IMG/VR virus record: IMGVR_UViG_3300037067_012889
Span: 32,001-96,000 of that record
Length of the DNA: 64,000 bases
Direction: 5' to 3' (one strand)
From: a virus
Taxonomy: Duplodnaviria; Caudoviricetes
The notes below the pieces were generated by a model. The model was not told the origin of the DNA. It saw nothing but the letters and a program-made list of their open reading frames with translations, and searched no databases. Shown here piece after piece: positions 32,369 through 61,121 of the stretch (position 1 is its first letter; every line of letters starts with the position of its first letter). Made by a program: the position numbers and the translations under genes.

Positions 32369-32408
32369 TTTCCAGGACGGAAACCGGCGTATGCTTTCGT
32401 GCTACAAC
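32369..32408 (+). promoter_or_regulatory. TTTCCA-N3-TGGAAA palindrome overlapping -35 of promoter
   Basis: TTTCCAGGACGGAAA-N14-CGTGCTACAAC. Confidence 0.7.
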
Positions 32409-32451
32409 AGTACTTTGGCAGGAGTCTATCCCAGAGTATAGGAGCAACGGT

Positions 32452-32631
32452 ATGCCAACACTGGCACAAGCAATCCGACAGAATCTCGTGCAGGCTGCAG
32501 AGCACACGTACGGTTCGTGTGTCGTGGAATTCGAAGGCCGCGAAGTCTCCTTCCGTTGGCGGGACGGAGTGGCGACCGTCGAAGACGGCGAAACCGAGCG
32601 TAGATTCCGTATCGAGGTCGTAGAGGAGTAG
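32452..32631 (+). CDS. Small hypothetical protein (59 aa)
   Basis: Hand-translated MPTLAQAIRQ...; AGGAG RBS. Confidence 0.65.
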   Translation: MPTLAQAIRQNLVQAAEHTYGSCVVEFEGREVSFRWRDGVATVEDGETERRFRIEVVEE

Positions 32632-32637
32632 TCCAGG

Positions 32638-32652
32638 TTTCCATCGTGGAAA
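32638..32652. repeat. TTTCCA-N3-TGGAAA palindrome
   Basis: TTTCCATCGTGGAAA, 6 nt after stop. Confidence 0.85.
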
Positions 32653-32668
32653 ATTGTGGAGATCATGT

Positions 32669-32866
32669 ATGTCTATAAACGTCATTCGTGGCGACAGGAT
32701 CGAACTCCTATCCATGTCAAACGATCCGCACCCAATCGAAACTGGGGCGCGAGGCACGGTGCTTTTCGTGGAGCCGATTGACGTCGGTATCCAAATCGTC
32801 GTCGACTGGGACAACGGCAGAAAGCTCAACCTCATCGTTCCACCCGACAGGTACAGAAAGATCTAA
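32669..32866 (+). CDS. DUF4314 family protein
   Basis: G.RIEL..M.DP.P...G.RGTV..V...I.V.WDNG..L.L...D. Confidence 0.75.
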   Translation: MSINVIRGDRIELLSMSNDPHPIETGARGTVLFVEPIDVGIQIVVDWDNGRKLNLIVPPDRYRKI

Positions 32867-32873
32867 TCCGAGG

Positions 32874-32913
32874 TTTCCAGCGTGGAAACAAACACCTATC
32901 ATGGTGCTATAAC
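32874..32913 (+). promoter_or_regulatory. Palindrome overlapping -35 of promoter
   Basis: TTTCCAGCGTGGAAA-N14-GGTGCTATAAC. Confidence 0.75.
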
Positions 32914-32929
32914 AACATAGAGGGACATC

Positions 32930-33145
32930 ATGCCAACGAAAAAAGAGCTGCAAGAAGCCTGTCGCAGGTTTGCAATTGAATCAATCAGTGCCGATCATTT
33001 CTTTGATCCCGTCTTCGACCATCTGATGGATAGGATGGCGGATGAAGAGATTGAGCGATTATGCGAATCTGATGACAGGAATGCAGCAGCTCTGGCGGCG
33101 GCACAAGAGATCAAAGCAGCAATCAAATCGCTGCCAATGTTGTGA
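32930..33145 (+). CDS. Small hypothetical protein
   Basis: GAGGG RBS; flanked by 30-bp direct repeats. Confidence 0.65.
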   Translation: MPTKKELQEACRRFAIESISADHFFDPVFDHLMDRMADEEIERLCESDDRNAAALAAAQEIKAAIKSLPML

Positions 33146-33150
33146 TCCGA

Positions 33151-33190
33151 TTTCCATCATGGAAACAAACACCTATCATGGTGCTATAAT
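33151..33190 (+). promoter_or_regulatory. Palindrome overlapping -35 of promoter
   Basis: TTTCCATCATGGAAA-N14-GGTGCTATAAT. Confidence 0.75.
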
Positions 33191-33266
33191 TAGGTGCAAC
33201 GGCGTCAAAAACGACATCTCAAACGCGGTGCCGGGATCCGCCAAGAAGAATCGAGCAAATCATGAA

Positions 33267-33497
33267 ATGGCATTTGTGAGTCGAGCGGCAGAACAGCGTA
33301 TCTTCAAACTTGCCTGTGATGGGTATGGATTTGAAGAGATCGAACAGACAGCAGATGGGCTATACTGCACTGGTTGCCAACAGGTCCACCATCGTCCAAT
33401 CAAGATGTATTCGAACGGACAAAACGAAGTGCTCTGCAAATCGGCAGTAGTTCGCTTCTATAATCCCGAGATTTCCAAGGAGGAAACAAAGAAATGA
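33267..33497 (+). CDS. Small hypothetical protein
   Basis: CTGC motif; start uncertain. Confidence 0.5.
   Translation: MAFVSRAAEQRIFKLACDGYGFEEIEQTADGLYCTGCQQVHHRPIKMYSNGQNEVLCKSAVVRFYNPEISKEETKK
33472..33486. repeat. TTTCCA-N3-TGGAAA palindrome (1 mismatch)
   Basis: TTTCCAAGGAGGAAA overlapping RBS of next gene. Confidence 0.65.
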
Positions 33498-33742
33498 CAT
33501 ACGTTATCGTCCGCAGCCAGATTGACTATCAGAACGAGATTTTGGCGGTCAGATCGACCAAGAAGGCGGCCAATACCTGTATGACCGAAATCGCCAAGCA
33601 GATGGTCGAGGATGCAAGCGACACGGAACCGCTTGGCATTGATACCACAAAGAGCGGCGAAATCACGCTGACCAGGACGGAGTTTGAGAATGAGGAACCG
33701 AAGTGGGTCCTGGAAATAATCATGGTTGAGGACGATAAATAA
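33494..33742 (+). CDS. Hypothetical protein
   Basis: AAGGAGG RBS. Confidence 0.65.
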   Translation: MTYVIVRSQIDYQNEILAVRSTKKAANTCMTEIAKQMVEDASDTEPLGIDTTKSGEITLTRTEFENEEPKWVLEIIMVEDDK

Positions 33743-33764
33743 CGTAGAAATCATCCACATGGCG

Positions 33765-33797
33765 AAGCCTCACGGCCCGAATAGCCGTGGGGCTTTT
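33765..33797 (+). terminator. Rho-independent terminator
   Basis: AAGCCTCACGGC/GCCGTGGGGCTT then TT, between convergent genes. Confidence 0.7.
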
Positions 33798-33802
33798 GTG
33801 TT

Positions 33803-33991
33803 TTAGCACGAGCATTTTGGATAGTGGGTGATTCTGATCGGTCCGACATCAACCGTGCAGCCTCGGACCTGAATGGGTCGGAATTGCCACCCTATCGGCT
33901 TGGATGGATGAGATTGGCCCTCTCGATAGATCCAGCGGCCAAATGTGGTTCGCCATCCCGTCCAGAGCATTTCGATCTTCCATCGCTTCAT
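33803..33991 (-). CDS. Small hypothetical protein
   Basis: ACAGGAGAT RBS after promoter cassette. Confidence 0.55.
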   Translation of the reverse strand: MKRWKIEMLWTGWRTTFGRWIYREGQSHPSKPIGWQFRPIQVRGCTVDVGPIRITHYPKCSC

Positions 33992-34016
33992 TTTCGAATC
34001 TCCTGTGCTTGGGGCG

Positions 34017-34069
34017 GACCTCCCTCCCCGGTACCAAGTTGTAGCACGAGAGCAGGTGATTATTAACCG
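34017..34069 (-). repeat. 53-bp promoter-leader cassette copy
   Basis: CGGTTAATAATCACC..CGTGCTACAACTTGGTACCGGGGAGGGAGGTC. Confidence 0.85.
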
Positions 34070-34431
34070 GGGCTTGCAGCGAAATCGGCTTTTGCCCATT
34101 CGAGCATCTGGTTTGTGATGGTCGGGAAGTCGCCAAGCTGTGTGAATTGTTCGCAGCAATCCGTTGGTGATTCTCCCCACGACATCCCACCAGTTATTAG
34201 CAGGATGAAGTTCATTCCGTCGATGCGAAACTCGGAGTATTCCTCTGATGGTCCGTTGACGATTTCAACTAGTTCGTTGACTGTGGTTTTTGCGATTTTT
34301 CGCCAGTCGGTCATTTCTTCGTTGCTTGTACCATCCGGGAATGGAATTTCGTCAGCGAGTTGTAGTAGCTTGGCAACTCGGTCTTCGGTTAGCTTACAAG
34401 CCGGAACCGTAGCATAAATGAACTCTGACAT
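34063..34431 (-). CDS. Hypothetical protein
   Basis: TGGMSWG motif; between two cassettes. Confidence 0.7.
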   Translation of the reverse strand: MSEFIYATVPACKLTEDRVAKLLQLADEIPFPDGTSNEEMTDWRKIAKTTVNELVEIVNGPSEEYSEFRIDGMNFILLITGGMSWGESPTDCCEQFTQLGDFPTITNQMLEWAKADFAASPG

Positions 34432-34463
34432 GGCATCTCTTTCTAGGCTGAAAACTTGAAGCT

Positions 34464-34516
34464 GACCTTCCTCTCCGGTACCAAGTTATAGCACAAGAAG
34501 AGGTGATTGTTAACCG
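34464..34516 (-). repeat. 53-bp promoter-leader cassette copy
   Basis: CGGTTAACAATCACC..TGTGCTATAACTTGGTACCGGAGAGGAAGGTC. Confidence 0.85.
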
Positions 34517-34587
34517 ACCATACACAAGCACCCGCAACGACTACGAGCCATTGCGGGTGCTAAGCACAGGAGACCACCACACTTATT

Positions 34588-34767
34588 TCAAACTTCTCCA
34601 AGTGGGAGAGTTGTCGATTCGGTCGTCACTTTGCCGCCATCTCTGATTGCCAAGTCGGACTTGTAAGCGAAATCACGCTTCGATTCGGCGTCATCCCAGT
34701 TGATGACACGCTTGTGGCATTCACCGGTGTCGGCATAAAAGACGGTGCAAAGAACTTTGAACATCAT
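34588..34767 (-). CDS. Small hypothetical protein (59 aa)
   Basis: Hand-translated MMFKVLCTVF...; GAAAGG RBS. Confidence 0.55.
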   Translation of the reverse strand: MMFKVLCTVFYADTGECHKRVINWDDAESKRDFAYKSDLAIRDGGKVTTESTTLPLGEV

Positions 34768-34794
34768 CGGCCTTTCTCAAAAAGACCCCGCAAT

Positions 34795-35250
34795 AGCTTC
34801 AACACCAAGCCTACTGTTACGGTGTTAGTTTTACCGACACAGCAATATGTCGGCGTGGCTTGGCTCCACTATCGCGAGATCTCTGCATGATGGGTTACGC
34901 AGCCCTTTCGGGCACTTGTTTATAGTGGGCTTATATACCACGTTGAGCGCTACCCATCTCTGCGTTATGTTTTCGGTCTGTGGCAGAGGGTGTCGTCACT
35001 GACGGCAGCCTCTGCCACCCTCTGCTGAGAGAGTGGCGACCATTATAATACGCAAAAGGCTTTTGCCTGCACCTAACCCCATCCGACTTTCCAGACGTTC
35101 GTTTTTACGTACGCTTTCTGTTGACGCCCATTATCTTGTGGCGTCGTTCTGGAAAACCAGCAAAGGTCCGAGAGCAGGCACCGCAGAAAAATCGCGATGC
35201 CGAACATTCAAGCTCTCCTTTTTCCGATGACCACGATTGGTTTCATCCGC
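34795..35250 (-). ncRNA. Candidate large structured RNA
   Basis: Own promoter; at least 8 nested helices; GAAA tetraloop on minus strand. Confidence 0.5.
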
Positions 35251-35255
35251 CCTTC

Positions 35256-35284
35256 GTTGTAGCACCGCGATGGTGCCCGCTTAA
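35256..35284 (-). promoter_or_regulatory. Phage promoter motif
   Basis: TTAA-N14-GGTGCTACAAC. Confidence 0.7.
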
Positions 35285-35288
35285 CTGA

Positions 35289-35582
35289 TCACGCCGTGTC
35301 TCTGGATTCGTTGAAATTCACGATGGCGTCCCTGAGGACTTCGAAGACGGTCTGCCGTGCTTTCGGGCTGTCGAGATAGTAAAAGGCCGCAGCCGCTTCG
35401 GACGTGAGCCACCAGAAGCTGAACTCAATGCCGTTGATCTTCACGCCGACGCACGGGCAGTGGTCGTCTTCCCAACCAGAAACGAGTTCGACCGTCAATT
35501 GTTCTGCATTGGTGATGTTCTCCAACGTCTGGAGTTCGTCACCGTTCAGATCGTCAATCATCCGGGTGCATCGTTCGGTCAT
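35289..35582 (-). CDS. Hypothetical protein
   Basis: ACAGGAG RBS. Confidence 0.65.
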   Translation of the reverse strand: MTERCTRMIDDLNGDELQTLENITNAEQLTVELVSGWEDDHCPCVGVKINGIEFSFWWLTSEAAAAFYYLDSPKARQTVFEVLRDAIVNFNESRDTA

Positions 35583-35607
35583 CGCGTCTCTCCTGTGTGT
35601 TGGAGAG

Positions 35608-35660
35608 GACCTTCCTCTCCGGTACCAAGTTATGGCACGAGGGGAGGTGATTGTTAACCG
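35608..35660 (-). repeat. 53-bp promoter-leader cassette copy
   Basis: CGGTTAACAATCACC..CGTGCCATAACTTGGTACCGGAGAGGAAGGTC. Confidence 0.85.
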
Positions 35661-35944
35661 GCGTCTTTGATGGCTTCCTCAACCATCTGGTTCAGATAGC
35701 CGCTATTGAGTGCGAAATCTTCTGCCGACTTGTAAGAGCAGTTGCCAAGATAAGCCGTTCCTACGCAAGTTCCAACCTTGGCCAAAACCGTAGCCGTACA
35801 CCAGCCCCATCTTCCCTCTGCCGTCTTCATAACCTCTCTGACAGCCTTGGCGTAACCGGGTGTCGATTTTGTTCGCCTCTCGGACTGTTCTGGCGTCTCG
35901 TCCTCTTCAAGCGTACTAATTGTGATCGTGATTTTCGTCGCCAT
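35654..35944 (-). CDS. Hypothetical protein
   Basis: ACAGGAGAT RBS; YLG.CSY motif. Confidence 0.65.
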   Translation of the reverse strand: MATKITITISTLEEDETPEQSERRTKSTPGYAKAVREVMKTAEGRWGWCTATVLAKVGTCVGTAYLGNCSYKSAEDFALNSGYLNQMVEEAIKDAG

Positions 35945-35972
35945 TTCGGAATCTCCTGTGTGACCTCGAACG

Positions 35973-36001
35973 TTTATAGCACCAGAGCAGGAGATTATTA
36001 A
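35973..36001 (-). promoter_or_regulatory. Phage promoter motif
   Basis: TTAA-N14-GGTGCTATAAA. Confidence 0.7.
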
Positions 36002-36024
36002 CCGGCTTGCGACGGCGATCAAAG

Positions 36025-36076
36025 CGGTTAACAATCACCGCCCATCGTGCTATAACTTGGCATGGGGAGGGAGGTC
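36025..36076 (+). repeat. Promoter-leader cassette copy
   Basis: CGGTTAACAATCACC..CGTGCTATAACTTGGCATGGGGAGGGAGGTC. Confidence 0.85.
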
Positions 36077-36103
36077 CGACCCAGAAACACAGGAGATTTC
36101 GAA

Positions 36104-37666
36104 ATGCTCAGCTTCACCGAACAGTTTCTCGCAGCTCGCAAGGTCGGCGTTCCTCTCATCGGAATCGAAAGCAGCGATCCTGGTGCGACGATGAAGACGC
36201 TGGTCAAGGACTGCTCCGAAACGCCTGTTTCTGCTGCTGTCGTTACGTGGAATTCGGCCACTGGTGTTGTTGGCAACAACGTTGCTGGTGAGAAACTGGC
36301 ATCGCGTCTGAACGAAGACCCCGACATCGCCGCTCCGATCGCTTTTCTGACCGCAATCGCCAGCGACGTCACGCCGGGATGGACCATCATCGGGATGCAA
36401 GCGGCAACCGATTGGTTCGACAACCCGGTCGTTCGTCAGGCCATCTGGAATCTCCGCGACAACTTCAAGCGTCGTGGTTGCACTCTCGTCCTGCTCTCGG
36501 ACGTCATCCAGCTACCGAACAGCCTCAAAAACGACGTCGTCATCATCGAAGAGCCGATGCCGAACGAAGAGCAGTTGGCCGGAATCGTCAAGACGCTCGA
36601 CGCACAAACGAGCCGTTGCGATTGTGGCGGCGTCAAGGGCTGCACGAAGTGCAAGGGGACTGGCATCAAGACGAAGCGGCCGTTGTGTGACGAGGACACG
36701 GTTGGCCGCGTGGTCGAAGCCGTGAAGGGCTTGCCGTACTTCGGTGCTGAACAGGTCGTGGCGATGGCACTCCGCAATCAGCCGGTCGCCGGACAGAAGC
36801 CCACGAGCTGCATCGACCTCGAACACTGCTGGAGTGCGAAGCGGAAGCAGGTCGAGCAGACGAAGGGGCTGTCGATCCATCGTGGCGGCGAGACTTTCGA
36901 TGATCTCGGTGGTCTCGACCAAATCAAGACCTACTTGAGTCGCATCATGACGGGCCGCAAGGCTCCGAAGCTCATCGTGTGGCTCGACGAAATCGAGAAG
37001 ACCGGCTTGGCAAATCGTGGCGACACGAGCGGCGTCAATCAGGACCAGGAAGGTACACTGCTTTCCTGGATGGAAGATTTCGACGTCTTCGGTGTCATGC
37101 TCCTTGGCGTTCCGGGTTGCGGCAAGTCGGCCATCTGCAAGGCGGTTGGTGCCGAATACGATCGCGTCGTCATCCGAATCGATCTCGGTGCGATGCAAGG
37201 CTCGCTGGTCGGCCAAAGCCAGACCAACATCCGAGCAGCCTTGAAGGTGGTGCAGGCCATCGGTGGTACCGACACGCTGTGGCTGGCGACGAGCAACAGC
37301 ATCAGCGGCTTGTCCTCTGCGATGAAGTCCCGATTCACCGACACCTTCTTTTTCGACCTGCCGCCGAAGGAAGAGCGTCTGCCGATTTGGAAGGTGTGGC
37401 TCGACAAGAACGGCCTCTCGGACAAGCCTTTCACGAACGACGAAGGCTGGGTCGCCCGCAACATCAAGAAGTGCTGCGACAAGGCGTTCCGAATGGGCAT
37501 CTCCATCGCGGAAGCCGCCACATACATCACCCCTGTTGGCCTGACCGACCGCGAGGACATCAAGAATCTGCGGTCCTGCGCCGACAACCGGTACCTCTCG
37601 GCCTCTCATGCTGGCGTCTACAAGGTGCCGAAGACCGTCGAGCCGGAACGGGCTTTGAGCCTCTGA
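36104..37666 (+). CDS. Ycf46-like AAA+ ATPase with swapped Walker A/B segments
   Basis: GGL..IK, WLDEIEK, GVPGCGKS, ATSN, RF...FFFDLP; CxxCxGxG insertion. Confidence 0.9.
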   Translation: MLSFTEQFLAARKVGVPLIGIESSDPGATMKTLVKDCSETPVSAAVVTWNSATGVVGNNVAGEKLASRLNEDPDIAAPIAFLTAIASDVTPGWTIIGMQAATDWFDNPVVRQAIWNLRDNFKRRGCTLVLLSDVIQLPNSLKNDVVIIEEPMPNEEQLAGIVKTLDAQTSRCDCGGVKGCTKCKGTGIKTKRPLCDEDTVGRVVEAVKGLPYFGAEQVVAMALRNQPVAGQKPTSCIDLEHCWSAKRKQVEQTKGLSIHRGGETFDDLGGLDQIKTYLSRIMTGRKAPKLIVWLDEIEKTGLANRGDTSGVNQDQEGTLLSWMEDFDVFGVMLLGVPGCGKSAICKAVGAEYDRVVIRIDLGAMQGSLVGQSQTNIRAALKVVQAIGGTDTLWLATSNSISGLSSAMKSRFTDTFFFDLPPKEERLPIWKVWLDKNGLSDKPFTNDEGWVARNIKKCCDKAFRMGISIAEAATYITPVGLTDREDIKNLRSCADNRYLSASHAGVYKVPKTVEPERALSL

Positions 37667-37859
37667 TACGTCCTGTGTCACAACTCGATCGGATGTGGCT
37701 CGTAGTCGCTCCGATCGGGTTGTTTTCTTTGAGGTAATAGATGAAAACCCGCGAATTGGTGAAACTGTTAATTGGTGCGCTATTAATAACTGGTGTGTGT
37801 TGGCTTGTGCATCTGGTCGAGTGGTGTTGTCAGCCATAGTCGAGATGGCAAACAGGCGG

Positions 37860-37888
37860 TTAATAATTACCCCTCATCGTGCTATAAC
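37860..37888 (+). promoter_or_regulatory. Phage promoter motif
   Basis: TTAA-N14-CGTGCTATAAC. Confidence 0.75.
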
Positions 37889-37925
37889 TAGTTACCGGAA
37901 AACAACATCTAACAGGAGATAGACG

Positions 37926-38882: not shown

Positions 38883-39210
38883 GCTCGTCAAATTACTACT
38901 ACAGGTCCTAGTGTGGCCTGTAGTAGTAATTTTTCGATGGTTCGATGGTGATCGATTATCATCACTTCAAGCATGGTCTGATGAAGTCTTAAAGGACGAC
39001 CAAGACCTCGACAATGAGGGATTTCTAAAGAAGGTCCAAGAAGATAATCTCACCAAAACACTATTCCCTACCGAATTTGCTAAGAAGGTAGCAGAGATTT
39101 ACGGTGCAACGGGGTGTGTTAGCACTGCTGCTCCTCTCGACATCCAAAATAAGGACTCTGACAAGCCAGAAATAGATACAGGCGACGAAAGAGTTATCTG
39201 TCTCGATTAA
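38875..39210 (+). CDS. Hypothetical membrane-anchored protein
   Basis: Hydrophobic N-terminus. Confidence 0.5.
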   Translation: MNKLVKLLLQVLVWPVVVIFRWFDGDRLSSLQAWSDEVLKDDQDLDNEGFLKKVQEDNLTKTLFPTEFAKKVAEIYGATGCVSTAAPLDIQNKDSDKPEIDTGDERVICLD

Positions 39211-39235: not shown

Positions 39236-39267
39236 TGGGTAGCGGGAAAGCAAATACAGGAGCAATC

Positions 39268-39910: not shown

Positions 39911-40157
39911 ACTCTTAATCGACGTGCTCGATGACGGCAGCTTGGCCGCGATCCACAACGATGCGTTGGTGGATTTGTATAGCGAAGGCCAGACGACCAT
40001 ACGGCGTGCAAGCAACGTTGAGCCGGTCGTAGTAGATGGCAAGGTGGCATGGGTTGCAGACCTCTCGCCTGTTGGTGGTCCGAAGCTCGAACCATGCGAC
40101 CTACGGGCCGACGCACTCGCGGCCGAGGTTGTTTGGTTGCAAGAGAACGGATTCTAA
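39897..40157 (+). CDS. Small conserved protein of the DUF1257/DUF2997 module
   Basis: IRRAS.VEP...W.ADLSPVGGP.L...R.DALAAE..WL. Confidence 0.7.
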   Translation: MSANELLIDVLDDGSLAAIHNDALVDLYSEGQTTIRRASNVEPVVVDGKVAWVADLSPVGGPKLEPCDLRADALAAEVVWLQENGF

Positions 40158-40159
40158 TC

Positions 40160-40174
40160 TTTCCAGAATGGAAA
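40160..40174. repeat. TTTCCA-N3-TGGAAA palindrome
   Basis: TTTCCAGAATGGAAA, 2 nt after stop. Confidence 0.85.
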
Positions 40175-40178: not shown

Positions 40179-40358
40179 GTGCAAGTAGGTCATCACATCC
40201 TGGAAGCATTGCGGTACGCAGCGAAACAACCGTGCCATCGATCTAACTGCGGCACAGTATGTAAGTGTGGTCCATGTCACGCACGAGCAGCACTCCAAGT
40301 TGTTGAAGAACGAGAACACAAACGCCTAAAGGCAAAATATGAGCAGCGAAACACATGA
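40179..40358 (+). CDS. Small Cys-rich protein (59 aa)
   Basis: Hand-translated, GTG start. Confidence 0.4.
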   Translation: MQVGHHILEALRYAAKQPCHRSNCGTVCKCGPCHARAALQVVEEREHKRLKAKYEQRNT

Positions 40359-40998
40359 AAGCTATGGCATGGTAGGGTTCTCGCGGACGAGTTGCCGCCC
40401 TGGTGTCAACCTCTTCGGATCGGCTATCAAACACGCCAACATTATAACACTACGTATCAAGCAGGCCAAAAAAGAACGCAGCTTGAACGAAGATCGGTAT
40501 TATGGTGGCGAATCGCTCATCGAGGTCGCCATGAGCCAAAACCAGTTTGCCGAAGCTATTACAGCGATGAATGTCGGCGACGGCGTTCCGTGCACTATCC
40601 GGCGAATTGGGAAGACCGGCGTGGCTGATTGCCCAGAAGAAACTGTGCGGCAAGTGTTCGAACAGGAATTCAAGCAGCATTGTGCTGAAATCGTAGAAGC
40701 TGCTGCTGGTCTGGTATCGAAGGCAGGGAAGATGCTGGAACAGAAGACGGTCAAAAAATCGGAATTGAAGGAACTTATCTCCGTTCTCAGGAAGCTTTCG
40801 ATTGAGCTTAATTGCAATCTACCATTCGTCGGCAGCCAGTTCAACGACGCGATGGATAAGATTGTCACTGACGGCAAGAATACCGTCGAAGCCTACATCT
40901 TACACCGGCTTACCGAGCTTGGTACCAAGGCACTCAGCAAAGAGATTGACGATTCGAACGAGCTTCCGGCAATCACTTTCCAGGGTACATTGGGTTAA
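40339..40998 (+). CDS. Conserved-looking phage hypothetical protein
   Basis: H.SYG...SR...LFGS ... EV.MS..QFA..IT..N.G.GVPCTI. Confidence 0.75.
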   Translation: MSSETHESYGMVGFSRTSCRPGVNLFGSAIKHANIITLRIKQAKKERSLNEDRYYGGESLIEVAMSQNQFAEAITAMNVGDGVPCTIRRIGKTGVADCPEETVRQVFEQEFKQHCAEIVEAAAGLVSKAGKMLEQKTVKKSELKELISVLRKLSIELNCNLPFVGSQFNDAMDKIVTDGKNTVEAYILHRLTELGTKALSKEIDDSNELPAITFQGTLG

Positions 40999-41046
40999 AT
41001 CCGTTACTATTTCGTGCTATAACTGGGTAGCGGGGAGGGAGGTCCG
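40995..41046 (+). promoter_or_regulatory. Promoter motif with conserved GGGGAGGGAGGTCC leader
   Basis: TTAA(stop)-N14-CGTGCTATAAC. Confidence 0.75.
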
Positions 41047-41065
41047 ACCGCATAGGAGGCATGAA

Positions 41066-41687: not shown

Positions 41688-41702
41688 TTTCCAAGATGGA
41701 AA
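41688..41702. repeat. TTTCCA-N3-TGGAAA palindrome
   Basis: TTTCCAAGATGGAAA. Confidence 0.85.
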
Positions 41703-43724: not shown

Positions 43725-44010
43725 GCGGTTCTGGTGAGACGATCTGCGGTTGGAATTTCGACCGATATTCCGCCGCAAGTTGATCAATGCACACAGATTC
43801 TGTCAAAATATGTGCCGTCGCCACCGCAACAGGCTTGTCCATATCCGATGGGCACCACATCTGTAGCGCAATACCTTGCTGAGTGAAAGTCATCTTCAAC
43901 GGTCGCCTAACGAAGGTGACATCACTATTAGCGGGGTCTGGGTTGTCGGTTGAATCCCAATCGGCAATCATTGTCTCGCCGTTGACGAACTTGTAAATCT
44001 TAGTCAGCAT
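43696..44010 (-). CDS. Small Sm-like phage protein (tentative)
   Basis: K..NGE..IA ... P ... W.P ... Y ... I..P pattern; GGAGG RBS. Confidence 0.55.
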   Translation of the reverse strand: MLTKIYKFVNGETMIADWDSTDNPDPANSDVTFVRRPLKMTFTQQGIALQMWCPSDMDKPVAVATAHILTESVCIDQLAAEYRSKFQPQIVSPEPPKLIVPGQP

Positions 44011-44062: not shown

Positions 44063-44077
44063 TTTCCAAGATGGAAA
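44063..44077. repeat. TTTCCA-N3-TGGAAA palindrome
   Basis: TTTCCAAGATGGAAA, 9 nt past minus-strand stop. Confidence 0.85.
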
Positions 44078-44086: not shown

Positions 44087-44575
44087 CTACTCGCCGCTGG
44101 TTGTATATTCGAAGTAAGGTGCAAATCCACCAGCTTCAAGCCGAGGATCCCACGACTGTTCGAGAATCTTCTTTTCCAACTCTTCGACCGCTGTGGCCTC
44201 TTCTTCGAAGGCACAGACATGGCGTTTGGTGTTCGAATGGTCATAATAATACAAATGACCAGAGAACATTTTGTGTCGACGGCTGGTATGTGCACCGGAC
44301 AAATCGATGACATGAGTGGGTTCTTCGCTGTTGATGTCGGCCCAAATACGTAGTATGGGCTTCCCATCGACATACTCCAAGTAGATTGGAGCGTCATCAT
44401 ACCCATCAGCGGACGTCTTAGTAGAACAACCTTCGAGCGAGATGGCAATCCCGTCGCTGTCTTCGCTTTTGACAGTAATGCCGAGACGCGTATCAGCACC
44501 GAGATCTCGAATCTCGAAATATGAACGCGTTGAGGTTGCGATAATTGATCGTTCCATTCTGGCTGGCTTCGTCAT
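44087..44575 (-). CDS. Hypothetical protein
   Basis: PI.LE...G......WADIN.EEPTH.I.L. Confidence 0.65.
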   Translation of the reverse strand: MTKPARMERSIIATSTRSYFEIRDLGADTRLGITVKSEDSDGIAISLEGCSTKTSADGYDDAPIYLEYVDGKPILRIWADINSEEPTHVIDLSGAHTSRRHKMFSGHLYYYDHSNTKRHVCAFEEEATAVEELEKKILEQSWDPRLEAGGFAPYFEYTTSGE

Positions 44576-52965: not shown

Positions 52966-53208
52966 ATGCAACCTTGGCTTATTACCGATCCACAGGAATT
53001 CTATGACGAGATAGTCGTCCCGTCTGGATTCTTTGAAAAGGCTAGGGAAATCTTCCCCGATTACAATAATCGCCAGTCCGACGCCGCAGCCTGTTGGATT
53101 GTGTATATGGTCGAGGAATCCATTGATGTCGATGCCGATCTCAAATGGTCGAACCTTGTCTCAATGCGCGACGACATTTTTGAAATGATCATCGCAGGAT
53201 TGACATGA
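52966..53208 (+). CDS. Hypothetical protein
   Basis: ORF in run. Confidence 0.55.
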   Translation: MQPWLITDPQEFYDEIVVPSGFFEKAREIFPDYNNRQSDAAACWIVYMVEESIDVDADLKWSNLVSMRDDIFEMIIAGLT

Positions 53209-53408
53209 ACAGAAAATTCCTATGTCTCGTTCTTGACAGAACAAGTAAGGCAACTATTAAGGAATACCCAGAAGTTGTCGCTATCGATGCCTATCATGCA
53301 CTTAGGATGACGGCCAATCGATATGCCGAAGAAATCGGATCTTGGTCCGGTGATTGGTACGTGGATTGTTTAGAAACTACCGAGGAGAATGATCATGGCT
53401 CAACCTGA
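53205..53408 (+). CDS. Hypothetical protein
   Basis: ATGA overlap. Confidence 0.55.
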   Translation: MNRKFLCLVLDRTSKATIKEYPEVVAIDAYHALRMTANRYAEEIGSWSGDWYVDCLETTEENDHGST

Positions 53409-53553
53409 ATTCTGTGTCAAGCTGATTGTCGAAGGCAAGAATACCCAGACGACCGTCTACGCCAATGATGCTGCTTCTGCAGCACGACTGGCTCGCGAGC
53501 AGTACAGTGGCAGCAACGTGCGAGTGCTCAGTACCGACAAGGTCAAAGGCTAA
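53395..53553 (+). CDS. Small hypothetical protein (52 aa)
   Basis: Hand-translated MAQPEFCVKL...; GAGGAG RBS. Confidence 0.55.
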   Translation: MAQPEFCVKLIVEGKNTQTTVYANDAASAARLAREQYSGSNVRVLSTDKVKG

Positions 53554-55078: not shown

Positions 55079-55158
55079 TCGTGACTATTTCTCGTTTTCT
55101 GACAGAGTGCAACATGTATTTCAAAATCCAGAGGATTTCACTCCATCTGGATTTGCAA

Positions 55159-55187
55159 TTAAATCCGATACACTATCGTGCTAAAAC
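55159..55187 (+). promoter_or_regulatory. Phage promoter motif
   Basis: TTAA-N14-CGTGCTAAAAC. Confidence 0.7.
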
Positions 55188-55227
55188 CTGATGGGTTTGA
55201 TTCACCACCTTTTTCTATGAGGGACAC

Positions 55228-56430
55228 ATGACCACAGCAACGCAAGCTCCGAAGCTCGATTACGCAGTCGCACCGCTCCGCTCGATCAAAATCGAAGAGG
55301 TCGGACAGAAGGGACGGGTGTCGATGTTAAGCATCGACGATCGCAAATTCTGCCCGACGTCGCGATTCTGGACCAGCCTGTGCAGCACCTACAGCACCCA
55401 CGGCCTCAGCACGAAGGTCTTCAAGCTGTTCAGCCACCAGGAAGTGCTGCAACGGCTGACCGACGTCCTGGGCGGCGACGACAAGGCCCGGATTCGCTTC
55501 ACGTTCGAAGACAAGGGAACGGCTCCCGGCAACATTCTAGCAATCACGCTCCCCTCGAAGCCGGTCATCACCTACGAGACGATCAACGGCACCTTGAGCA
55601 AGTATAACGCCCTCTCCGTCACGTACGGCGACGGTATCGTCCGCTCCACACACACGCCGAACCATATGCAGGATTTCAAGATCGGCGGTGACGGATTCGC
55701 CCATCAATACGTTCTTGAAACTCCCATCGACGGCTTCGGCTCCCCGCTGATCTATTTGTCGCTCCTGCGCCAGGTCTGCAGCAACGGTGCCATCGGCTAC
55801 TCTCGTGCATTCCGGAGTGAAATCTCCATGGGTCGCGGCGATACGAAGAATGCCGACCTCATGTTCAGCATGGAGCGGGCACTCGATTCGTTCAGCAACG
55901 AAGAGGGCTTCGCGGCCTTGCGTACTCGCTTCGAATCGTCTACCCAATCGTGGGCGTCGATCTCCGAATGCAACCGCATCTACAAGGTGCTGGCGGCAAT
56001 GGCTCAGAAGGGCCTGTTCTTGAAGCAGGGCACCGAAGGGGCCAAACTCGTCGAGAAGCATGCGGCCCGTCGTGAAGCCGTCATCAACGCCGGCGGCGAA
56101 GGTACCCAAGAGAACCCGGTTGTCGTGAAGATCATGCGGGCTTACGCTTCGCTGACCGGCGACCTCTGCTCCATCTACGGTCTGACGCACTTGGACGCGC
56201 TCAGCCGCAAGAAGATGCAGCAACTCCCTGCCCATTGCACGATGTACGATTTGCTCAACTTCGCGACCGAGGTCGCCACGCACCACTGTGAGGAGAAGAA
56301 CGGCCGTCTGCTCCAAGCCGAAGTCGGCAATTTCGTCAGCAACGAGTATGACCTGGAAGGTTCGAAGGTGTCGAAGGAGCAATTCGCTGATTGGTTCCTC
56401 GACACGTCGGACATTCCGCCGAAGGAATAG
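55228..56430 (+). CDS. DUF932-like protein
   Basis: DG.G......LLR.VC.NG and T.YDL.N..TE.A.H motifs. Confidence 0.65.
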   Translation: MTTATQAPKLDYAVAPLRSIKIEEVGQKGRVSMLSIDDRKFCPTSRFWTSLCSTYSTHGLSTKVFKLFSHQEVLQRLTDVLGGDDKARIRFTFEDKGTAPGNILAITLPSKPVITYETINGTLSKYNALSVTYGDGIVRSTHTPNHMQDFKIGGDGFAHQYVLETPIDGFGSPLIYLSLLRQVCSNGAIGYSRAFRSEISMGRGDTKNADLMFSMERALDSFSNEEGFAALRTRFESSTQSWASISECNRIYKVLAAMAQKGLFLKQGTEGAKLVEKHAARREAVINAGGEGTQENPVVVKIMRAYASLTGDLCSIYGLTHLDALSRKKMQQLPAHCTMYDLLNFATEVATHHCEEKNGRLLQAEVGNFVSNEYDLEGSKVSKEQFADWFLDTSDIPPKE

Positions 56431-56436
56431 TTCCGG

Positions 56437-56451
56437 TTTCCAGAATGGAAA
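56437..56451. repeat. TTTCCA-N3-TGGAAA palindrome
   Basis: TTTCCAGAATGGAAA, 6 nt after stop, upstream of a separate terminator. Confidence 0.85.
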
Positions 56452-56481
56452 GCCGGGAGAGAAATCTCCCGGCTTCTTTTT
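56450..56481 (+). terminator. Rho-independent terminator
   Basis: AAGCCGGGAGA/TCTCCCGGCTT then CTTTTT. Confidence 0.85.
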
Positions 56482-56492
56482 AGGATTATGAA

Positions 56493-56876
56493 ATGAGACT
56501 TCTACTAGAAATGGCTTTTACCAGGGATGGTTTTAAGAATCAGCTTGAACACAAGCTGGTCGGTGCCATTATCCATCATTATCAAGCCGAACTTGCTAAG
56601 GCAAATGGTAAGAATAAGTGGGTGGTACACTGGTCGAACGAATCGAAACGCCTGTTGGTAGAATTCCGAACACTTCTATCTCATAGTATCAAAGGGACAT
56701 GGAGCCGTACAAAAGCTGCTAAAGAGGTAGTCACACTGATGAAGAGAAACGACAAGCAATACCGAAGAGTGGCATATAATGTCGTTTGTCGAGATTTCAG
56801 ATCCAAGCTTTCGAACACGCTACCAGAAAGAACGAAATTCTGGGATAGAGTTGGAGATATTATCTCAGATAGTTGA
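56493..56876 (+). CDS. Hypothetical protein
   Basis: LLEMA N-terminus; HW..E motif. Confidence 0.6.
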   Translation: MRLLLEMAFTRDGFKNQLEHKLVGAIIHHYQAELAKANGKNKWVVHWSNESKRLLVEFRTLLSHSIKGTWSRTKAAKEVVTLMKRNDKQYRRVAYNVVCRDFRSKLSNTLPERTKFWDRVGDIISDS

Positions 56877-56968
56877 TATTCACCCCGCGCTGGTATCGTC
56901 GGGTCAGCCTTCGGGCTGGACAGCCAGAGCAATAAACGAACGAGCCTGAAAAAATTGCTCCCTTTCGG

Positions 56969-57007
56969 GGCGGCGATGCAACGAGTCTCCTGCATCGCCG
57001 CCTTTTT
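56969..57007 (+). terminator. Rho-independent terminator
   Basis: GGCGGCGATGCA/TGCATCGCCGCC then TTTTT. Confidence 0.8.
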
Positions 57008-57024
57008 GTATTTAAATGTATCTT

Positions 57025-57112
57025 GGCCGTGTGGAGAAATCGGTAAACTCAACAAATTTAAAATTTGTCACCTATTCAAACGGGTTTGCGGGTTCGAATC
57101 CCGCCACGGCTA
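57025..57112 (+). tRNA. tRNA-Leu(TAA)
   Basis: GGCCGTG/CACGGCT, ACAAA-TTTAAAA-TTTGT, long variable arm, A73. Confidence 0.9.
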
Positions 57113-57147
57113 CTAACCTCCATTACGTAAATAATGTGGAGGTTCGA

Positions 57148-57840
57148 ATGATACCAGATAATACCCTCTTCGAGATGGCACACGAATCCTATTCAGTATG
57201 CGACGTTATGATAAAGCTTGGCTTAGTACCTGCGGGAGGTAATCACAGATTATACAGCAAGCGGCTTGCAGGATTCGCCTTTAAAAAACGACCACCGTTA
57301 GGTGCTGCGGGTAAGAGTAGGGCAATCATCGATTATCTGGTACTTGACGGTCCGGTGATCTTGACATCCAAGCTAAAGAAGAAGCTATTCAATGCAGGTC
57401 TCAAAAAGAAAATCTGTGAAATATGTGGGCAGGGGCCTGTTTGGAATAATAAACCACTAACCTTCCATCTAGATCATGAAGATGGAAATAATAGGAATAA
57501 TCGATTAGAAAACCTACGTGTTTTATGCCCTAACTGCCACACTCAAACTCCGACGTACGCAATTAGTGTGCAAAGAAAAGAACCCCGAGAAGTAAGAAAT
57601 GGCGTCATAAAACCGAGAAAACTCATAAGATGTAAGTCTTGTGACTGTCGATTGAAGACTCGCAGAAAGACTGGTTTGTGCCGTAAATGCTTCGAAGTTA
57701 AATTTCCACCACCACGCAAAGTGTCGAATAGACCAGAAAAGAACGTACTATTAAAAGAGATAGCCGAAATGGGTTATTGTGGTGTTGGTAGAAAATATGG
57801 CGTATCTGATCACGCTGTTCGAAAATGGGTAAAAACTTAA
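57148..57840 (+). CDS. HNH homing endonuclease
   Basis: CEICG...LDH.DG...NN.LENLR.LCPNCH; C-terminal HTH. Confidence 0.9.
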   Translation: MIPDNTLFEMAHESYSVCDVMIKLGLVPAGGNHRLYSKRLAGFAFKKRPPLGAAGKSRAIIDYLVLDGPVILTSKLKKKLFNAGLKKKICEICGQGPVWNNKPLTFHLDHEDGNNRNNRLENLRVLCPNCHTQTPTYAISVQRKEPREVRNGVIKPRKLIRCKSCDCRLKTRRKTGLCRKCFEVKFPPPRKVSNRPEKNVLLKEIAEMGYCGVGRKYGVSDHAVRKWVKT

Positions 57841-57865
57841 ACACTTACTATTGTCGTGCTATAAC
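57837..57865 (+). promoter_or_regulatory. Phage promoter motif
   Basis: TTAA(stop)-N14-CGTGCTATAAC. Confidence 0.75.
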
Positions 57866-57894
57866 CTTGCGTAAACCCAAACATAGGAGACATT

Positions 57895-58599
57895 ATGATT
57901 CATTACGACGAGTCCGACAATCCGAGTAATGGCTGGCGTGCACCAGATCCCGACGAGGTTGACGATATCGAAAATCGTCTTCACGACCTCGAACCCGGTG
58001 CCGAAGAAAATCCGCTTGAAAAGGCACCACTGGCCTACAATCCGCTCAATCATGCCTACCCCATGACCGCTGAAACGACCATCGGCGTCGTCGAATTCAT
58101 GGTGCAATTCACGATTATCAAGGGAGCTAGCAACCTCCCTGTTGAATTCTTCAGCAGCACCAACGAGTTGCAGTTGCCCATGTCAATCGAAGACGTGCCG
58201 GTCACCGAGAACCCCGGCCAATCCTTCTTCGGCCAAGATTTCAAGGGTTGGGCCAATGATCAGGTTAACGAAAGTGCCCTCGTCAGCGAGTTGAAAGGAG
58301 ACGAGAGGTATTTCTTGATACCGATGATCGTCCGAGCACGACGTCTCGTAACGGGAGAACCTGACGCCACCGATACCTGGGAGCCACTTACTGTAGAGCA
58401 AACGGCGGGTCTCATTTCCGGCCAAGCTCTACTCGATCTCATTCTCGGCTATTACGAGAAGATCTCCGACGACGACAATGCTCCTACGGCCCTCTTGGAC
58501 ATTCTGGAACATTTCACTGGCAGATACGATCGCAACAAAACCAAATATCCCGGAGTCGCCGACGAGGAGTGGGAATCCGGCGAGGAAGAGTGGAACTGA
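57895..58599 (+). CDS. Acidic hypothetical protein
   Basis: AGGAG RBS. Confidence 0.7.
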   Translation: MIHYDESDNPSNGWRAPDPDEVDDIENRLHDLEPGAEENPLEKAPLAYNPLNHAYPMTAETTIGVVEFMVQFTIIKGASNLPVEFFSSTNELQLPMSIEDVPVTENPGQSFFGQDFKGWANDQVNESALVSELKGDERYFLIPMIVRARRLVTGEPDATDTWEPLTVEQTAGLISGQALLDLILGYYEKISDDDNAPTALLDILEHFTGRYDRNKTKYPGVADEEWESGEEEWN

Positions 58600-58668
58600 T
58601 ACTGAAGAGAGCTTGCGGTCACCTCGGATCCAAGTTCTACTGAACTAAGCTAGTCTCAAATAGATAGG

Positions 58669-59547
58669 ATGGATAAAATGCCCGATCAAGCCGTCGAAAA
58701 TATAGCGGCCCTCTTGGCCGCATCGTATCTGAACAAAGCTGGTGTCATTAGCTGCCAGTTTGTAATCAAACTGAAGCAACAGACGCCTGAAATAATCGCC
58801 GCCACGAATACCAAGCTTGTCGAGATGGGATATCCGGCGTACGACATCGACGCAAAGAAATCTCGCAACCGAAACAAGACGCGAGCACAACCAGCAGGAC
58901 ATCCTATCGCATTGTCTGGCGAGGACGCCGAGAAGGAACGGCAGATCATCGCCATGCTGGAAGAAATCCAGCGAGACAAAAACGCTGCCCAATCGTGGCT
59001 TGATACCGTCATCGGCGCTGAAAACCACTACCAGCAGAAGCTGCATGAACTCCGAGGGACCAAGTTCACCCCAAAACCCGATCCATATGTTGAAATTTAC
59101 GCACCGGCCCACGATCATGCTCGCAACAACCGAGCCGAACTGGCGGCAAGTTCCAAATGCGGTTGTTTCTTCTGCCGAGCCATCTTCGATCCAAAAATTA
59201 TTGCCGAATTCGCCGACAACGGGCAAACGGCCATATGCCCAAATTGCGGGGTCGATTCACTCATCGGCGACAAAGCCGGATACGAACTGAACAACGAATT
59301 TCTTATCGCTATGTTCAGGCGGTGGTTTGCAGTGCCAATCCGGATCCGTAAGATCCGGGAATTGAACCCTATGGCTATTGCACCTCCAACAGTACCTCCT
59401 GCTATTGCACCTCCAATACCTCCTGCACCACCGGCCCCCGAGCCGGAGCCGGAGCCGGAATTGCCCGAAATCGATGACGAGAAGTTGGCCGGTCTTGGTA
59501 GTAAGTTGATTGCCAACCTCCCGGCCGATGACGAAGAGGATATGTAG
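58669..59547 (+). CDS. Hypothetical protein with Cys-rich zinc domain and Pro-rich tail
   Basis: CGCF.C..IF ... TAICP.CG.DS.IGD. Confidence 0.7.
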   Translation: MDKMPDQAVENIAALLAASYLNKAGVISCQFVIKLKQQTPEIIAATNTKLVEMGYPAYDIDAKKSRNRNKTRAQPAGHPIALSGEDAEKERQIIAMLEEIQRDKNAAQSWLDTVIGAENHYQQKLHELRGTKFTPKPDPYVEIYAPAHDHARNNRAELAASSKCGCFFCRAIFDPKIIAEFADNGQTAICPNCGVDSLIGDKAGYELNNEFLIAMFRRWFAVPIRIRKIRELNPMAIAPPTVPPAIAPPIPPAPPAPEPEPEPELPEIDDEKLAGLGSKLIANLPADDEEDM

Positions 59548-59589
59548 TTATTCTTGAAACGTGAAGCGAAACGGGGCGTGTTGGAGAAA

Positions 59590-59618
59590 TTCAGCACGCC
59601 CCGTTTTCGTGCCATAAC
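59590..59618 (+). promoter_or_regulatory. Promoter variant overlapping a terminator-like hairpin
   Basis: TTCA-N14-CGTGCCATAAC; hairpin AAACGGGGCGTG/CACGCCCCGTTT. Confidence 0.55.
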
Positions 59619-59635
59619 GTACTGGAGGAGTCTAA

Positions 59636-59839
59636 ATGCAAGACGAATGTTTAGTGATTTGTAAAGACGACGGTGTGTACTATGTGGCTACTCGCCAACT
59701 TATGACACAGTCGGATGCCGAAGAATACGTCAAGCGTTGCGATCCCAGCCGCGAACCCATTATCGTGCATCCAAATCGCAATTGGCAACTGCGGTCAGCC
59801 TCAATCGCCGCAGCGTGGCGAGCAACTCTTGGTCTTTGA
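59636..59839 (+). CDS. Hypothetical protein
   Basis: GGAGG RBS. Confidence 0.6.
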   Translation: MQDECLVICKDDGVYYVATRQLMTQSDAEEYVKRCDPSREPIIVHPNRNWQLRSASIAAAWRATLGL

Positions 59840-59846
59840 GACAACG

Positions 59847-60200
59847 ATGCCAGAACATGACGAACAATGGCAATGGATTGTCGATCTGACAACCGATGAG
59901 CCGAAGCTACCACCTCGGCCGCAGTCAAAGACCGATAAAGAAGACGAGAGGAAGGTATACGCTCTTCTGCACAAACGCATGTGGACCTGTGCAGAAGAGC
60001 GTATAGGCAGATGGATAGGGTTTGTAACCGCAGTGTTGTTTTGGGGCATGATGGCCATTTCCTATTACAATTACACCATGCAGCCAAAGCCTGTTATGTA
60101 TTATGACGCCGACACTCAGACGATGAAGCCAATTCCTGGACTCTACAAAGTAGGCGGGAAAGAGATGTTTCTACAGGTTAAAGATGAGAAAACAAAGTAG
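59847..60200 (+). CDS. Hypothetical membrane protein
   Basis: One hydrophobic helix. Confidence 0.55.
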   Translation: MPEHDEQWQWIVDLTTDEPKLPPRPQSKTDKEDERKVYALLHKRMWTCAEERIGRWIGFVTAVLFWGMMAISYYNYTMQPKPVMYYDADTQTMKPIPGLYKVGGKEMFLQVKDEKTK

Positions 60201-60354
60201 GATTACCTTCGCAGAACTCGATAAACCCATGCTTGCTTGGTATAGCTTCAAATGGTTTATCATTTGGAGTGGCCGAATCCTGACATTGGGTCTGGCAGTC
60301 ATCGTCGCTATCACTGCTTTGCTGGCGTCCTCTAAGAAATCCGATCAATCTTAA
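60184..60354 (+). CDS. Small membrane protein (56 aa)
   Basis: Hand-translated MRKQSRITF...; TM segment; stop abuts palindrome. Confidence 0.55.
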   Translation: MRKQSRITFAELDKPMLAWYSFKWFIIWSGRILTLGLAVIVAITALLASSKKSDQS

Positions 60355-60369
60355 TTTCCAACTTGGAAA
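60355..60369. repeat. TTTCCA-N3-TGGAAA palindrome
   Basis: TTTCCAACTTGGAAA directly after TAA. Confidence 0.85.
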
Positions 60370-60374
60370 CCACT

Positions 60375-60641
60375 ATGAACGACATCCCCTGGTATCGATA
60401 CCTTCTATTCCCAGTCTGGCTTCTCTTGGTGACCGGACGTTTTGTCGCCAATCTATTCAGGCCAGATCCACCCGATTGGAAAGAAAAGCGAGCCGCATGG
60501 CTGGCAAAAGTAGAGGAGTCGGACGACCGGGCCAGAGCTCTGTCTGAGCTAAGTCCGGAAAATCAAGAGAAATTTAAACATCTCGCTCCTTGGCAGCAGA
60601 AGAAGTTCATAGCTGCTTTGAAGTCTAAGAAATGTATTTAA
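60375..60641 (+). CDS. Hypothetical membrane-anchored protein
   Basis: Fills exactly the space between two palindromes. Confidence 0.6.
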   Translation: MNDIPWYRYLLFPVWLLLVTGRFVANLFRPDPPDWKEKRAAWLAKVEESDDRARALSELSPENQEKFKHLAPWQQKKFIAALKSKKCI

Positions 60642-60656
60642 TTTCCATCATGGAAA
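60642..60656. repeat. TTTCCA-N3-TGGAAA palindrome
   Basis: TTTCCATCATGGAAA directly after TAA. Confidence 0.85.
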
Positions 60657-60671
60657 CCATAAGGATATAAG

Positions 60672-60878
60672 ATGTCTGGGAAGATAGAACTCGGTAAGGT
60701 AGTGGCCGGAACAGCATGTGTCAGAGAAGTCCGGTTAGATCCAGCAGGCAGACCGGTATTCTGCACGAGTTCAGCTGTAATGGCTATCAATACCAAGCCA
60801 CTATGTCAAAGACACGCCCAAGAGGCCATGCTTGCCTTTGAAGCTCAACAGACAGCGACGGCTAACGTGGCGTCTTAA
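60672..60878 (+). CDS. Small Cys-containing protein
   Basis: AAGGA RBS; LC..HA. Confidence 0.6.
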   Translation: MSGKIELGKVVAGTACVREVRLDPAGRPVFCTSSAVMAINTKPLCQRHAQEAMLAFEAQQTATANVAS

Positions 60879-60879
60879 A

Positions 60880-60894
60880 TTTCCAAGGTGGAAA
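60880..60894. repeat. TTTCCA-N3-TGGAAA palindrome
   Basis: TTTCCAAGGTGGAAA 1 nt after TAA. Confidence 0.85.
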
Positions 60895-60908
60895 TTCCAG
60901 GATATGAT

Positions 60909-61091
60909 ATGAATAAACCAGAATTAGATCTACTCAAAGCGGCCAAGGTATTATTAGCCTTGATGGACGATGTCCCACCAGATCCAACGCCGGGACTTAG
61001 TTACGAGCAAAATGACCGTTGTTTTGCTCGTTACGAGTTTGAAGACCTCCGTGCCGCCATCGCTAAAGTAGAAGGCAGCATGGAGGTCTAA
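60909..61091 (+). CDS. Small phage hypothetical protein
   Basis: DLL.AAK..L ... LRAAIAK.EG. Confidence 0.6.
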   Translation: MNKPELDLLKAAKVLLALMDDVPPDPTPGLSYEQNDRCFARYEFEDLRAAIAKVEGSMEV

Positions 61092-61106
61092 TTGTGGCGT
61101 CTTGAA

Positions 61107-61121
61107 TTTCCAAGGTGGAAA
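61107..61121. repeat. TTTCCA-N3-TGGAAA palindrome
   Basis: TTTCCAAGGTGGAAA between convergent stops. Confidence 0.85.

Follow-up and report, generated by a model that had tools for sequence, protein, structure and literature searches.

A conserved TTTCC-N5-GGAAA dyad punctuates a GC-rich, probably early region in a clade of T4-type jumbo phages

We consider a 15-bp dyad, TTTCCA-N3-TGGAAA, that recurs in a 64,000-nt window (bases 32,001-96,000) of the 363,885-bp virus record IMGVR_UViG_3300037067_012889 (the whole record is called G000; other coordinates are those of the window). The dyad is a strongly selected element, specific to one clade of T4-type jumbo phages, in which it punctuates what is probably the early region. 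Among the possible explanations we tentatively favour, at somewhat less than an even chance, an operator on double-stranded DNA, in which TTTCC-N5-GGAAA (with an inner pair that is usually A and T) would be held by a symmetric dimer of a phage or host protein and would act as a roadblock or insulator, or as an occluder of a -35 box.

A search with at most one mismatch recovers all thirteen sites that an earlier note on this sequence had listed in the window, eleven perfect and two with one mismatch, where dinucleotide shuffles yield 0.32 on average and never more than 2. The note had seen none in the first 32 kb, and there are in fact none before 32369; the whole-record scan that it named as a check returns, under the same tolerance, these thirteen sites and no others. 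With the core relaxed to TTTCC-Nx-GGAAA, the whole genome contains 13 copies with x = 5 and a single copy for all the other spacings from x = 1 to 9 together. Both single mismatches fall in the innermost pair. The centres of the two half-sites are exactly 10 bp apart, which is one helical turn, and a check of the sequence shows a palindrome with no asymmetric orientation of the stoperator kind. The sites span 32.4-61.1 kb of the window (29 kb of 364 kb, or 8% of the genome), and this span coincides with a block of GC content near 0.50 (32000-61500) in a genome that is otherwise near 0.42. The block, which is syntenic and GC-rich in the relatives too, holds all of the dyad sites, together with most promoters that are sigma-70-like.

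The relatives are ten assemblies, namely the IMG/VR records G001 (388 kb) and G002 (269 kb) and eight metagenome contigs, with a marker protein 67-82% identical. Source samples include the landfill and sediment metagenomes of contigs Ga0172381, Ga0265297 and Ga0315284. Intact-core sites number 8 in G001 and 11 in G002 and are confined to the syntenic GC-rich block, and the same motif is present on every metagenome contig that reaches the relevant positions. In the 64 sites collected from 11 genomes not one of the ten core bases varies (640/640), the inner pair is mostly A/T and is the sole place of mismatches, and the three centre bases are near random, so that the description of conserved arms around a variable centre is borne out on a much larger sample. 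There is no compensatory or G-U change in any of the 64 sites, while the coding DNA of these genomes is only 65-80% identical. The flanks are asymmetric, with A at -1 in 73% of the sites and C or G at +15 in 89%.

Some positions are near-universal, namely the three right-array sites S1-S3 and the site between the minus-strand genes that end at 44087 and start at 44010; the latter site (44063) is kept in five relatives (G1r, G2r, L019, L020 and, in a shifted position, L026). Others come and go: the sites at 40160, 56437 and 61107 are found only in this genome, and a site before gene 53389 only in the relatives. Distant relatives of gene 40339-40998 carry no analogous palindrome of another sequence. 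A search for a two-site pattern finds G001 alone in the viral collection, and in bacterial genomes it finds 24 unrelated contexts (coding repeats, operator-like triplets and a repeat array) that reveal neither the host nor the function. The same 15-bp dyad stands as operator-like triplets in AT-poor Roseateles/Mitsuaria DNA (L034, L038, L039, L043, L044, L054) and within a repeat array of 66-nt period in a delta-proteobacterial metagenome-assembled genome (L051), both unrelated to the phage.

The placement of the sites relative to genes is far from random. Twelve of the thirteen are fully intergenic, in a block where intergenic positions account for 17% of 15-nt windows (P ~1e-9), and in 20 of 23 co-directional cases the site is nearer to the upstream stop than to the next start (medians 4 and 16 nt). 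This preference for stops is explained in part by the packing of a ribosome-binding site or a promoter downstream. The sites close multi-gene units, which end at 40157, 41673, 44087 (minus strand), 56430 and 61091, and in two arrays, a left one at 32.4-33.5 kb and a right one at 60.4-61.1 kb, they stand between single small genes. Twelve sites had been placed 0-15 nt after a stop codon, and twelve such distances do hold, as given below; the stop that had been counted at 33472, however, lies in another frame.

In the left array, the site at 32369-32383 (one mismatch, at the inner pair) lies 13 nt past a stop, has flanks that extend the palindrome to 13 bp, and puts its 3' half in place of the -35 box of a promoter at 32400. 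The perfect site at 32638-32652 is 6 nt past a stop, with the next start 16 nt on. Two further perfect sites, at 32874-32888 and 33151-33165 (7 and 5 nt past their stops), both have GGAAA in the promoter register, 16 nt before an extended -10 box. The weakest member, at 33472-33486 with one mismatch, is probably situated within the last 8 codons of an uncalled 76-codon open reading frame (ORF; 33267-33497, four spaced cysteines) that overlaps the next gene's start by ATGA, and there it would double as the Shine-Dalgarno sequence, and so the ribosome-binding site, of gene 33494-33742.

The middle of the block contains four perfect sites. That at 40160-40174 is 2 nt past the last gene of a unit with an AAA+ ATPase, DUF1257 and DUF2997, has its next gene 164 nt downstream, and is not at this position in G001 or G002. 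That at 41688-41702 lies 14 nt past a stop; one relative has the orthologous site and the other has the promoter only. The site at 44063-44077 belongs to a minus-strand unit; the stop that precedes it, at 44087, is 9 nt away, and the minus-strand start that comes after it (44010) is at a distance of 52 nt. The site at 56437-56451 is 6 nt past a 400-aa gene (55228-56430) that is 77-81% identical in G001 and G002, and is followed directly by a canonical intrinsic terminator (plus strand, 56450-56475, an 11-bp stem and a T-run), so the separate terminator reported there is real. In the right array, again with perfect sites only, S1 (60355-60369) is 0 nt past a stop and 5 nt before the next ATG, S2 (60642-60656) is 0 nt past a stop, and S3 (60880-60894) is 1 nt past the stop of a conserved gene for a CCCH zinc protein; all three are orthologous in about ten genomes. 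S4 (61107-61121), 15 nt past a stop and between convergent genes, closes an extra gene (60909-61091).

When the sequences upstream of each TGCTAYRA box are aligned, a sigma-70-like promoter consensus emerges in which GTTAA is followed after 16 nt by TGCTAYRA; in these terms the -35 box is TTAACA-like, the spacer measures 17 nt and the -10 box is extended. Full copies number 22 in the genome, 16 of these at genome positions 60-94 kb. At 5 of the 64 dyad sites GGAAA stands in place of the promoter's GTTAA (32369, 32874, 33151 and two in relatives), four of them keeping the exact 16-nt register and one being 2 nt closer, so that 3 of the 13 sites in the window have an in-register promoter.

The operator on duplex DNA is favoured because the stem is invariant and the loop is free, there is no wobble or compensatory change, the half-sites are 10 bp apart, and the hairpin is weak. 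Hairpin-binding proteins usually select the reverse of an invariant stem with a free loop, and this pattern is just what would be expected of a symmetric dimer that reads duplex DNA. The RNA hairpin predicted for the isolated dyad has an energy of -2.9 to -3.5 kcal/mol with no U-tract after it, and when 65 nt of context are folded, about half of the sites have it in the minimum-energy structure. The case made in the earlier note for a protein-bound site, rather than a hairpin or a terminator, is strengthened by these properties. The dyad is not an intrinsic terminator: it has no G+C-rich stem followed by a U-tract, and a true terminator stands beside the site at 56437.

We infer that a protein binds the dyad, recognises it as DNA, and acts there as a roadblock or a repressor. 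On this basis the dyad would delimit the transcription units and gene units of the region that is probably early, the bound protein would form a roadblock or an insulator between the units, and where the dyad takes the place of a -35 box the protein would directly repress or, less likely, activate that promoter. A side effect would be that the recurrent sites, with the promoters joined to them, offer short homologies at which gene-plus-site units may be duplicated, lost or inserted. The proposal that the sites are roadblocks like the stoperators of mycobacteriophages fares well as to position (ends of units, tight spacers, and over the -35 box of five promoters), but no cognate protein is identified, no integrase is found and the site is palindromic; the phage may well be strictly lytic.

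Several points weigh against an operator. Only 3 of roughly 22 promoters in the block carry a dyad site, so it is not a general promoter operator. All of the sites are in transcribed spacers, and many are inside tight operons 5-15 nt before a start codon, a position equally natural for an RNA signal. The asymmetry of the flanks hints at a strand-specific constraint, though stop codons and ribosome-binding sites can explain it. Finally, no binder is identified: scans of about 50 block proteins, the small conserved ones included, against Pfam and PHROG find no DNA-binding family, and the ParB N-terminal domain has no match in the genome. The positional candidate for the reader is the CCCH protein encoded between S2 and S3 (60672-60878), which is 58-68 aa long with an invariant C, C, C and H in all the relatives. 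Its AlphaFold model is confident (a predicted local distance difference test score, pLDDT, of 88.7), but comparison of the structure with the PDB by Foldseek and VIA-align gives nothing above Z 4.1, which also counts against the operator. Two helix-turn-helix frames elsewhere in the record (G000 130849-131004 and 167879-168037) and ORF 33267-33497 are other candidates.

The same placement invites an explanation at the level of RNA, in which the dyad would be a hairpin in a polycistronic early mRNA, read by a sequence-specific RNA-binding protein or endoribonuclease that processes or stabilises the message, or couples or uncouples neighbouring cistrons. The position of the sites directly past the stop and often just before the next start, the asymmetric flanks, and the fact that no site is found in a divergent, untranscribed spacer are all consistent with it, as is the presence of dyad sites after a promoter-driven, tRNA-like small RNA in relatives. 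A fixed stem with a free loop, however, is the opposite of known recognition between hairpins and proteins; 64 sites without G-U or compensatory variation, and a hairpin of about -3 kcal/mol that is often not in the predicted fold, argue in the same direction. One site lies between convergent genes, and several stand upstream of a promoter, their register with its -10 box being exact. We regard an RNA signal as unlikely, yet as a serious alternative. A hairpin in single-stranded DNA, such as an N4-type promoter at which a polymerase of the phage would start, or a signal for priming or for an origin, is very improbable. The early promoters of N4 have a 5-7 bp stem and a 3-nt loop, and the 6-bp stem and 3-nt loop of the dyad fit this geometry. 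Against it, the genome yields no match to a T7- or N4-like polymerase domain (PF00940, a family whose control matched nowhere either), the loop centre is C in 22 of the 64 sites rather than a purine, a terminator follows immediately after the site at 56437, the site at 61107 faces a convergent gene, and the block is already served by ordinary sigma-70-like promoters.

The sites could also be primarily linkers for recombination that move single-gene cassettes, either through homologous recombination like that at the promoter-early stem-loops (PeSLs) or through an unrecognised site-specific nuclease or recombinase. Several local observations speak for such movement. A 28-bp unit made of 13 bp and a site (60867-60894, plus strand) is repeated with one mismatch at 61094-61121, and the two copies bracket gene 60909-61091, which, together with the site at 61107, is absent from all the relatives. 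A perfect 30-bp repeat consisting of the 3' arm and the promoter (32883-32912, plus strand, with its second copy at 33160-33189) brackets gene 32930-33145. Between the two conserved genes that border it, the left array has 0 gene-plus-site units in G001, 5 here and 6 in G002, with only two gene families shared, and one gene of G002 is duplicated in tandem, a dyad site accompanying either copy. Comparison of L024 with G001, to which it is about 90% identical, shows a 1.18-kb indel whose break lies within 1 nt of the S3 edge and a 229-nt insertion that stops 7 nt short of S1. The phage is of the T4 type, and PeSLs are documented in that group (PMC2839356, PMC4122927); the pattern of repeated elements with shuffled flanking genes matches the descriptions of Arbiol et al. 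and Comeau et al.

Other observations speak against it. That no recombinase is visible in the window now extends to the whole genome, where neither the tyrosine recombinase family (PF00589, with a control that matched in 14/14 genomes) nor the serine recombinase family (PF00239) has a match in 363,885 bp. The right-array genes (a small membrane protein, a second small protein and the CCCH zinc protein) and several of the sites are stable orthologues in about ten genomes. Both of the precise L024 breakpoints are without a second site at the other end, and other indels are without any dyad site. Indels survive mainly in spacers, informative events are few, and the coincidence of breakpoints with sites is not statistically significant. 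Of the breaks in gene content between relatives that the note proposed to compare with the sites, several fit (the left array, gene 60909-61091 and L024) and others do not. Moreover, purifying selection on ten bases over such divergence needs a sequence-specific reader, and patches of homology do not. We consider linkers as the primary role unlikely, yet a serious alternative too. Of the earlier idea of integron-like cassettes, what fails is the recombinase, the attC architecture and the mobility of the right-array genes, and what survives is a weaker form, in which gene-plus-site units are gained, lost and duplicated and single genes are bracketed by site-containing repeats. A combination of roles, for which we see a quite small chance, is a dedicated punctuation system, in which one sequence-specific dimeric protein, reading the dyads placed behind stop codons, would insulate the early units, and gain or loss of genes would be seeded, at their exact edges, by sites that are bound or nicked, a cassette exchange directed by a regulator and free of recombinase.

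We turn to the phage and its GC-rich block. G000 encodes a T4-type major capsid protein (Pfam Gp23, PF07068, E 2.6e-78), and it has no cultured relative at the DNA level, with only distant protein matches. The beta family of multisubunit RNA polymerases has no match in the genome, and the clade appears to use the host RNA polymerase. Since the block holds 16 of the 22 strong sigma-70-like promoters, it is probably the early region, a timing inferred from promoter density; over the genome as a whole the T4 late-promoter word shows no enrichment (26 copies, with 32 expected) and gives no help in timing the block. Besides the AAA+ ATPase with its DUF1257 and DUF2997 neighbours, the block encodes an NAD-dependent ligase, a helicase, a free-standing HNH endonuclease beside a tRNA-Leu, and many small proteins without a family; the tRNA-Leu is the sole Rfam match on the block. 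An assembly chimera or a foreign insert as the source of the jump in GC is rejected, as the block and its sites are syntenic in independent assemblies. Self-targeting by the phage's own CRISPR arrays (G000 199.3-204.6 kb) is set aside as well, as their spacers give no match to the block.

Promoters that match the consensus are at 34046, 34493, 35264 and 35981 on the minus strand, and at 36048, 37880, 39227, 41015, 42981, 51654, 53818 and 57857 on the plus strand. Several of them are followed by a conserved G-rich leader (GGGGAGGGAGGTCC-like) able to form a 5' hairpin, as at 34000-34040 and 34450-34490 (minus) and at 36056-36085 and 41023-41050 (plus). Further good intrinsic terminators in the block are at 32056-32094, where a related G-rich/C-rich pair flanks the terminator, and at 33764-33796. 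In the region 34063-35944, two genes (34588-34767 and 35654-35944) that lie on the minus strand in this genome have plus-strand homologues in both relatives; the order in which they follow each other does not fit a simple inversion of the segment, and each has its own copy of the promoter. The HNH endonuclease ORF (57016-57840), which abuts or overlaps the tRNA-Leu (57025-57113), is found in this genome only, the relatives keeping the tRNA alone, and it looks like the insertion of a free-standing homing endonuclease. The tRNA-like RNA of the relatives, about 90 nt long, lies between the homologues of 52966-53208 and 53389-53553 in G001 (L014:4791-4883, minus strand) and is syntenic in G002, L019, L021, L024 and L025. 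This RNA contains an acceptor-like stem of 7 bp and comes with a promoter of its own, is followed by a dyad site in two relatives, gives no Rfam or ARAGORN match, and is absent from the window.

Among known systems, the closest by phage type, placement and evolutionary behaviour are the PeSLs of T4-type phages, regulatory elements that recur and, via short homology, also reshuffle the genes beside them (Arbiol et al. 2010, PMC2839356; Comeau et al. 2014, PMC4122927). Their stems are stable and often contain G/C tracts, and one has been shown to terminate transcription (PMC2839356, PMC4122927). Like them, the dyad is a repeated element of a T4-like phage that fills the spacer from stop to start in a promoter-dense region rich in small genes, it is a lineage-conserved inverted repeat that can lie directly upstream of or abut a sigma-70-like promoter, and its repeats bracket single genes that differ between relatives. 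Unlike them, it has a short, AT-rich and weak stem without terminator features; only 5 of the 64 sites carry a promoter, and these replace the -35 box rather than lie upstream of it; the sequence is invariant clade-wide, and most of the flanked genes are conserved orthologues. The dyad fails two defining features of a PeSL, the integral promoter and, by prediction from sequence, the stable terminator stem.

The closest by form are the dyad repeats of Cluster O mycobacteriophages, 17-bp TGTTCGG-N3-CCGAACA elements present genome-wide in more than 30 copies, mostly intergenic with some in genes (PMC4351075); a single-gene indel bracketed by a 17-bp direct repeat, which may or may not be the dyad repeat, is also reported there (PMC4351075). 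The two share invariant arms, a variable 3-bp centre, many mostly intergenic copies and no detectable orientation, and they differ in the host and type of phage and in the confinement of the 13 copies here to 8% of the genome.

Two further systems serve as functional analogies only. The stoperators of Cluster A mycobacteriophages (the L5 gp71 sites) are 13-bp asymmetric sites, oriented with transcription and distributed genome-wide, through which the immunity repressor silences the prophage. They resemble the dyad as many copies of one short site in short spacers near stops, with a proposed block of the elongating polymerase, whereas the dyad is palindromic and limited to one block of a phage without a detectable integrase. 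The KorB operators (OB) of plasmid RK2 are a 13-bp palindrome in about 12 copies, some over a -35 box and others far from promoters, for one dimeric global regulator; the multi-copy palindrome divided between -35 boxes and promoter-distant positions is alike, but KorB belongs to a ParB-family system of plasmid partition and regulation, whose N-terminal domain is the one missing from this genome. Integron attC sites share with the dyad a repeated inverted-repeat element after each of several small genes. They are 57-141 bp long, conserved in structure and not in sequence, with extrahelical bases and an IntI tyrosine recombinase, none of which is seen here, and membership in this class is rejected for a 15-bp site of invariant sequence in a genome with no recombinase.

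To our knowledge, short lineage-specific palindromes between phage early genes are recurrent, the PeSLs and the Cluster O repeats being examples, and we know of none with a known reader. The dyad described here is an unusually clean case, with an invariant 10-base core, confinement to one compositionally distinct block and a clear promoter register. It is thus a good system for finding the binder of such an element, and for testing whether it serves these phages as an insulator, as a recombination linker, or as both.

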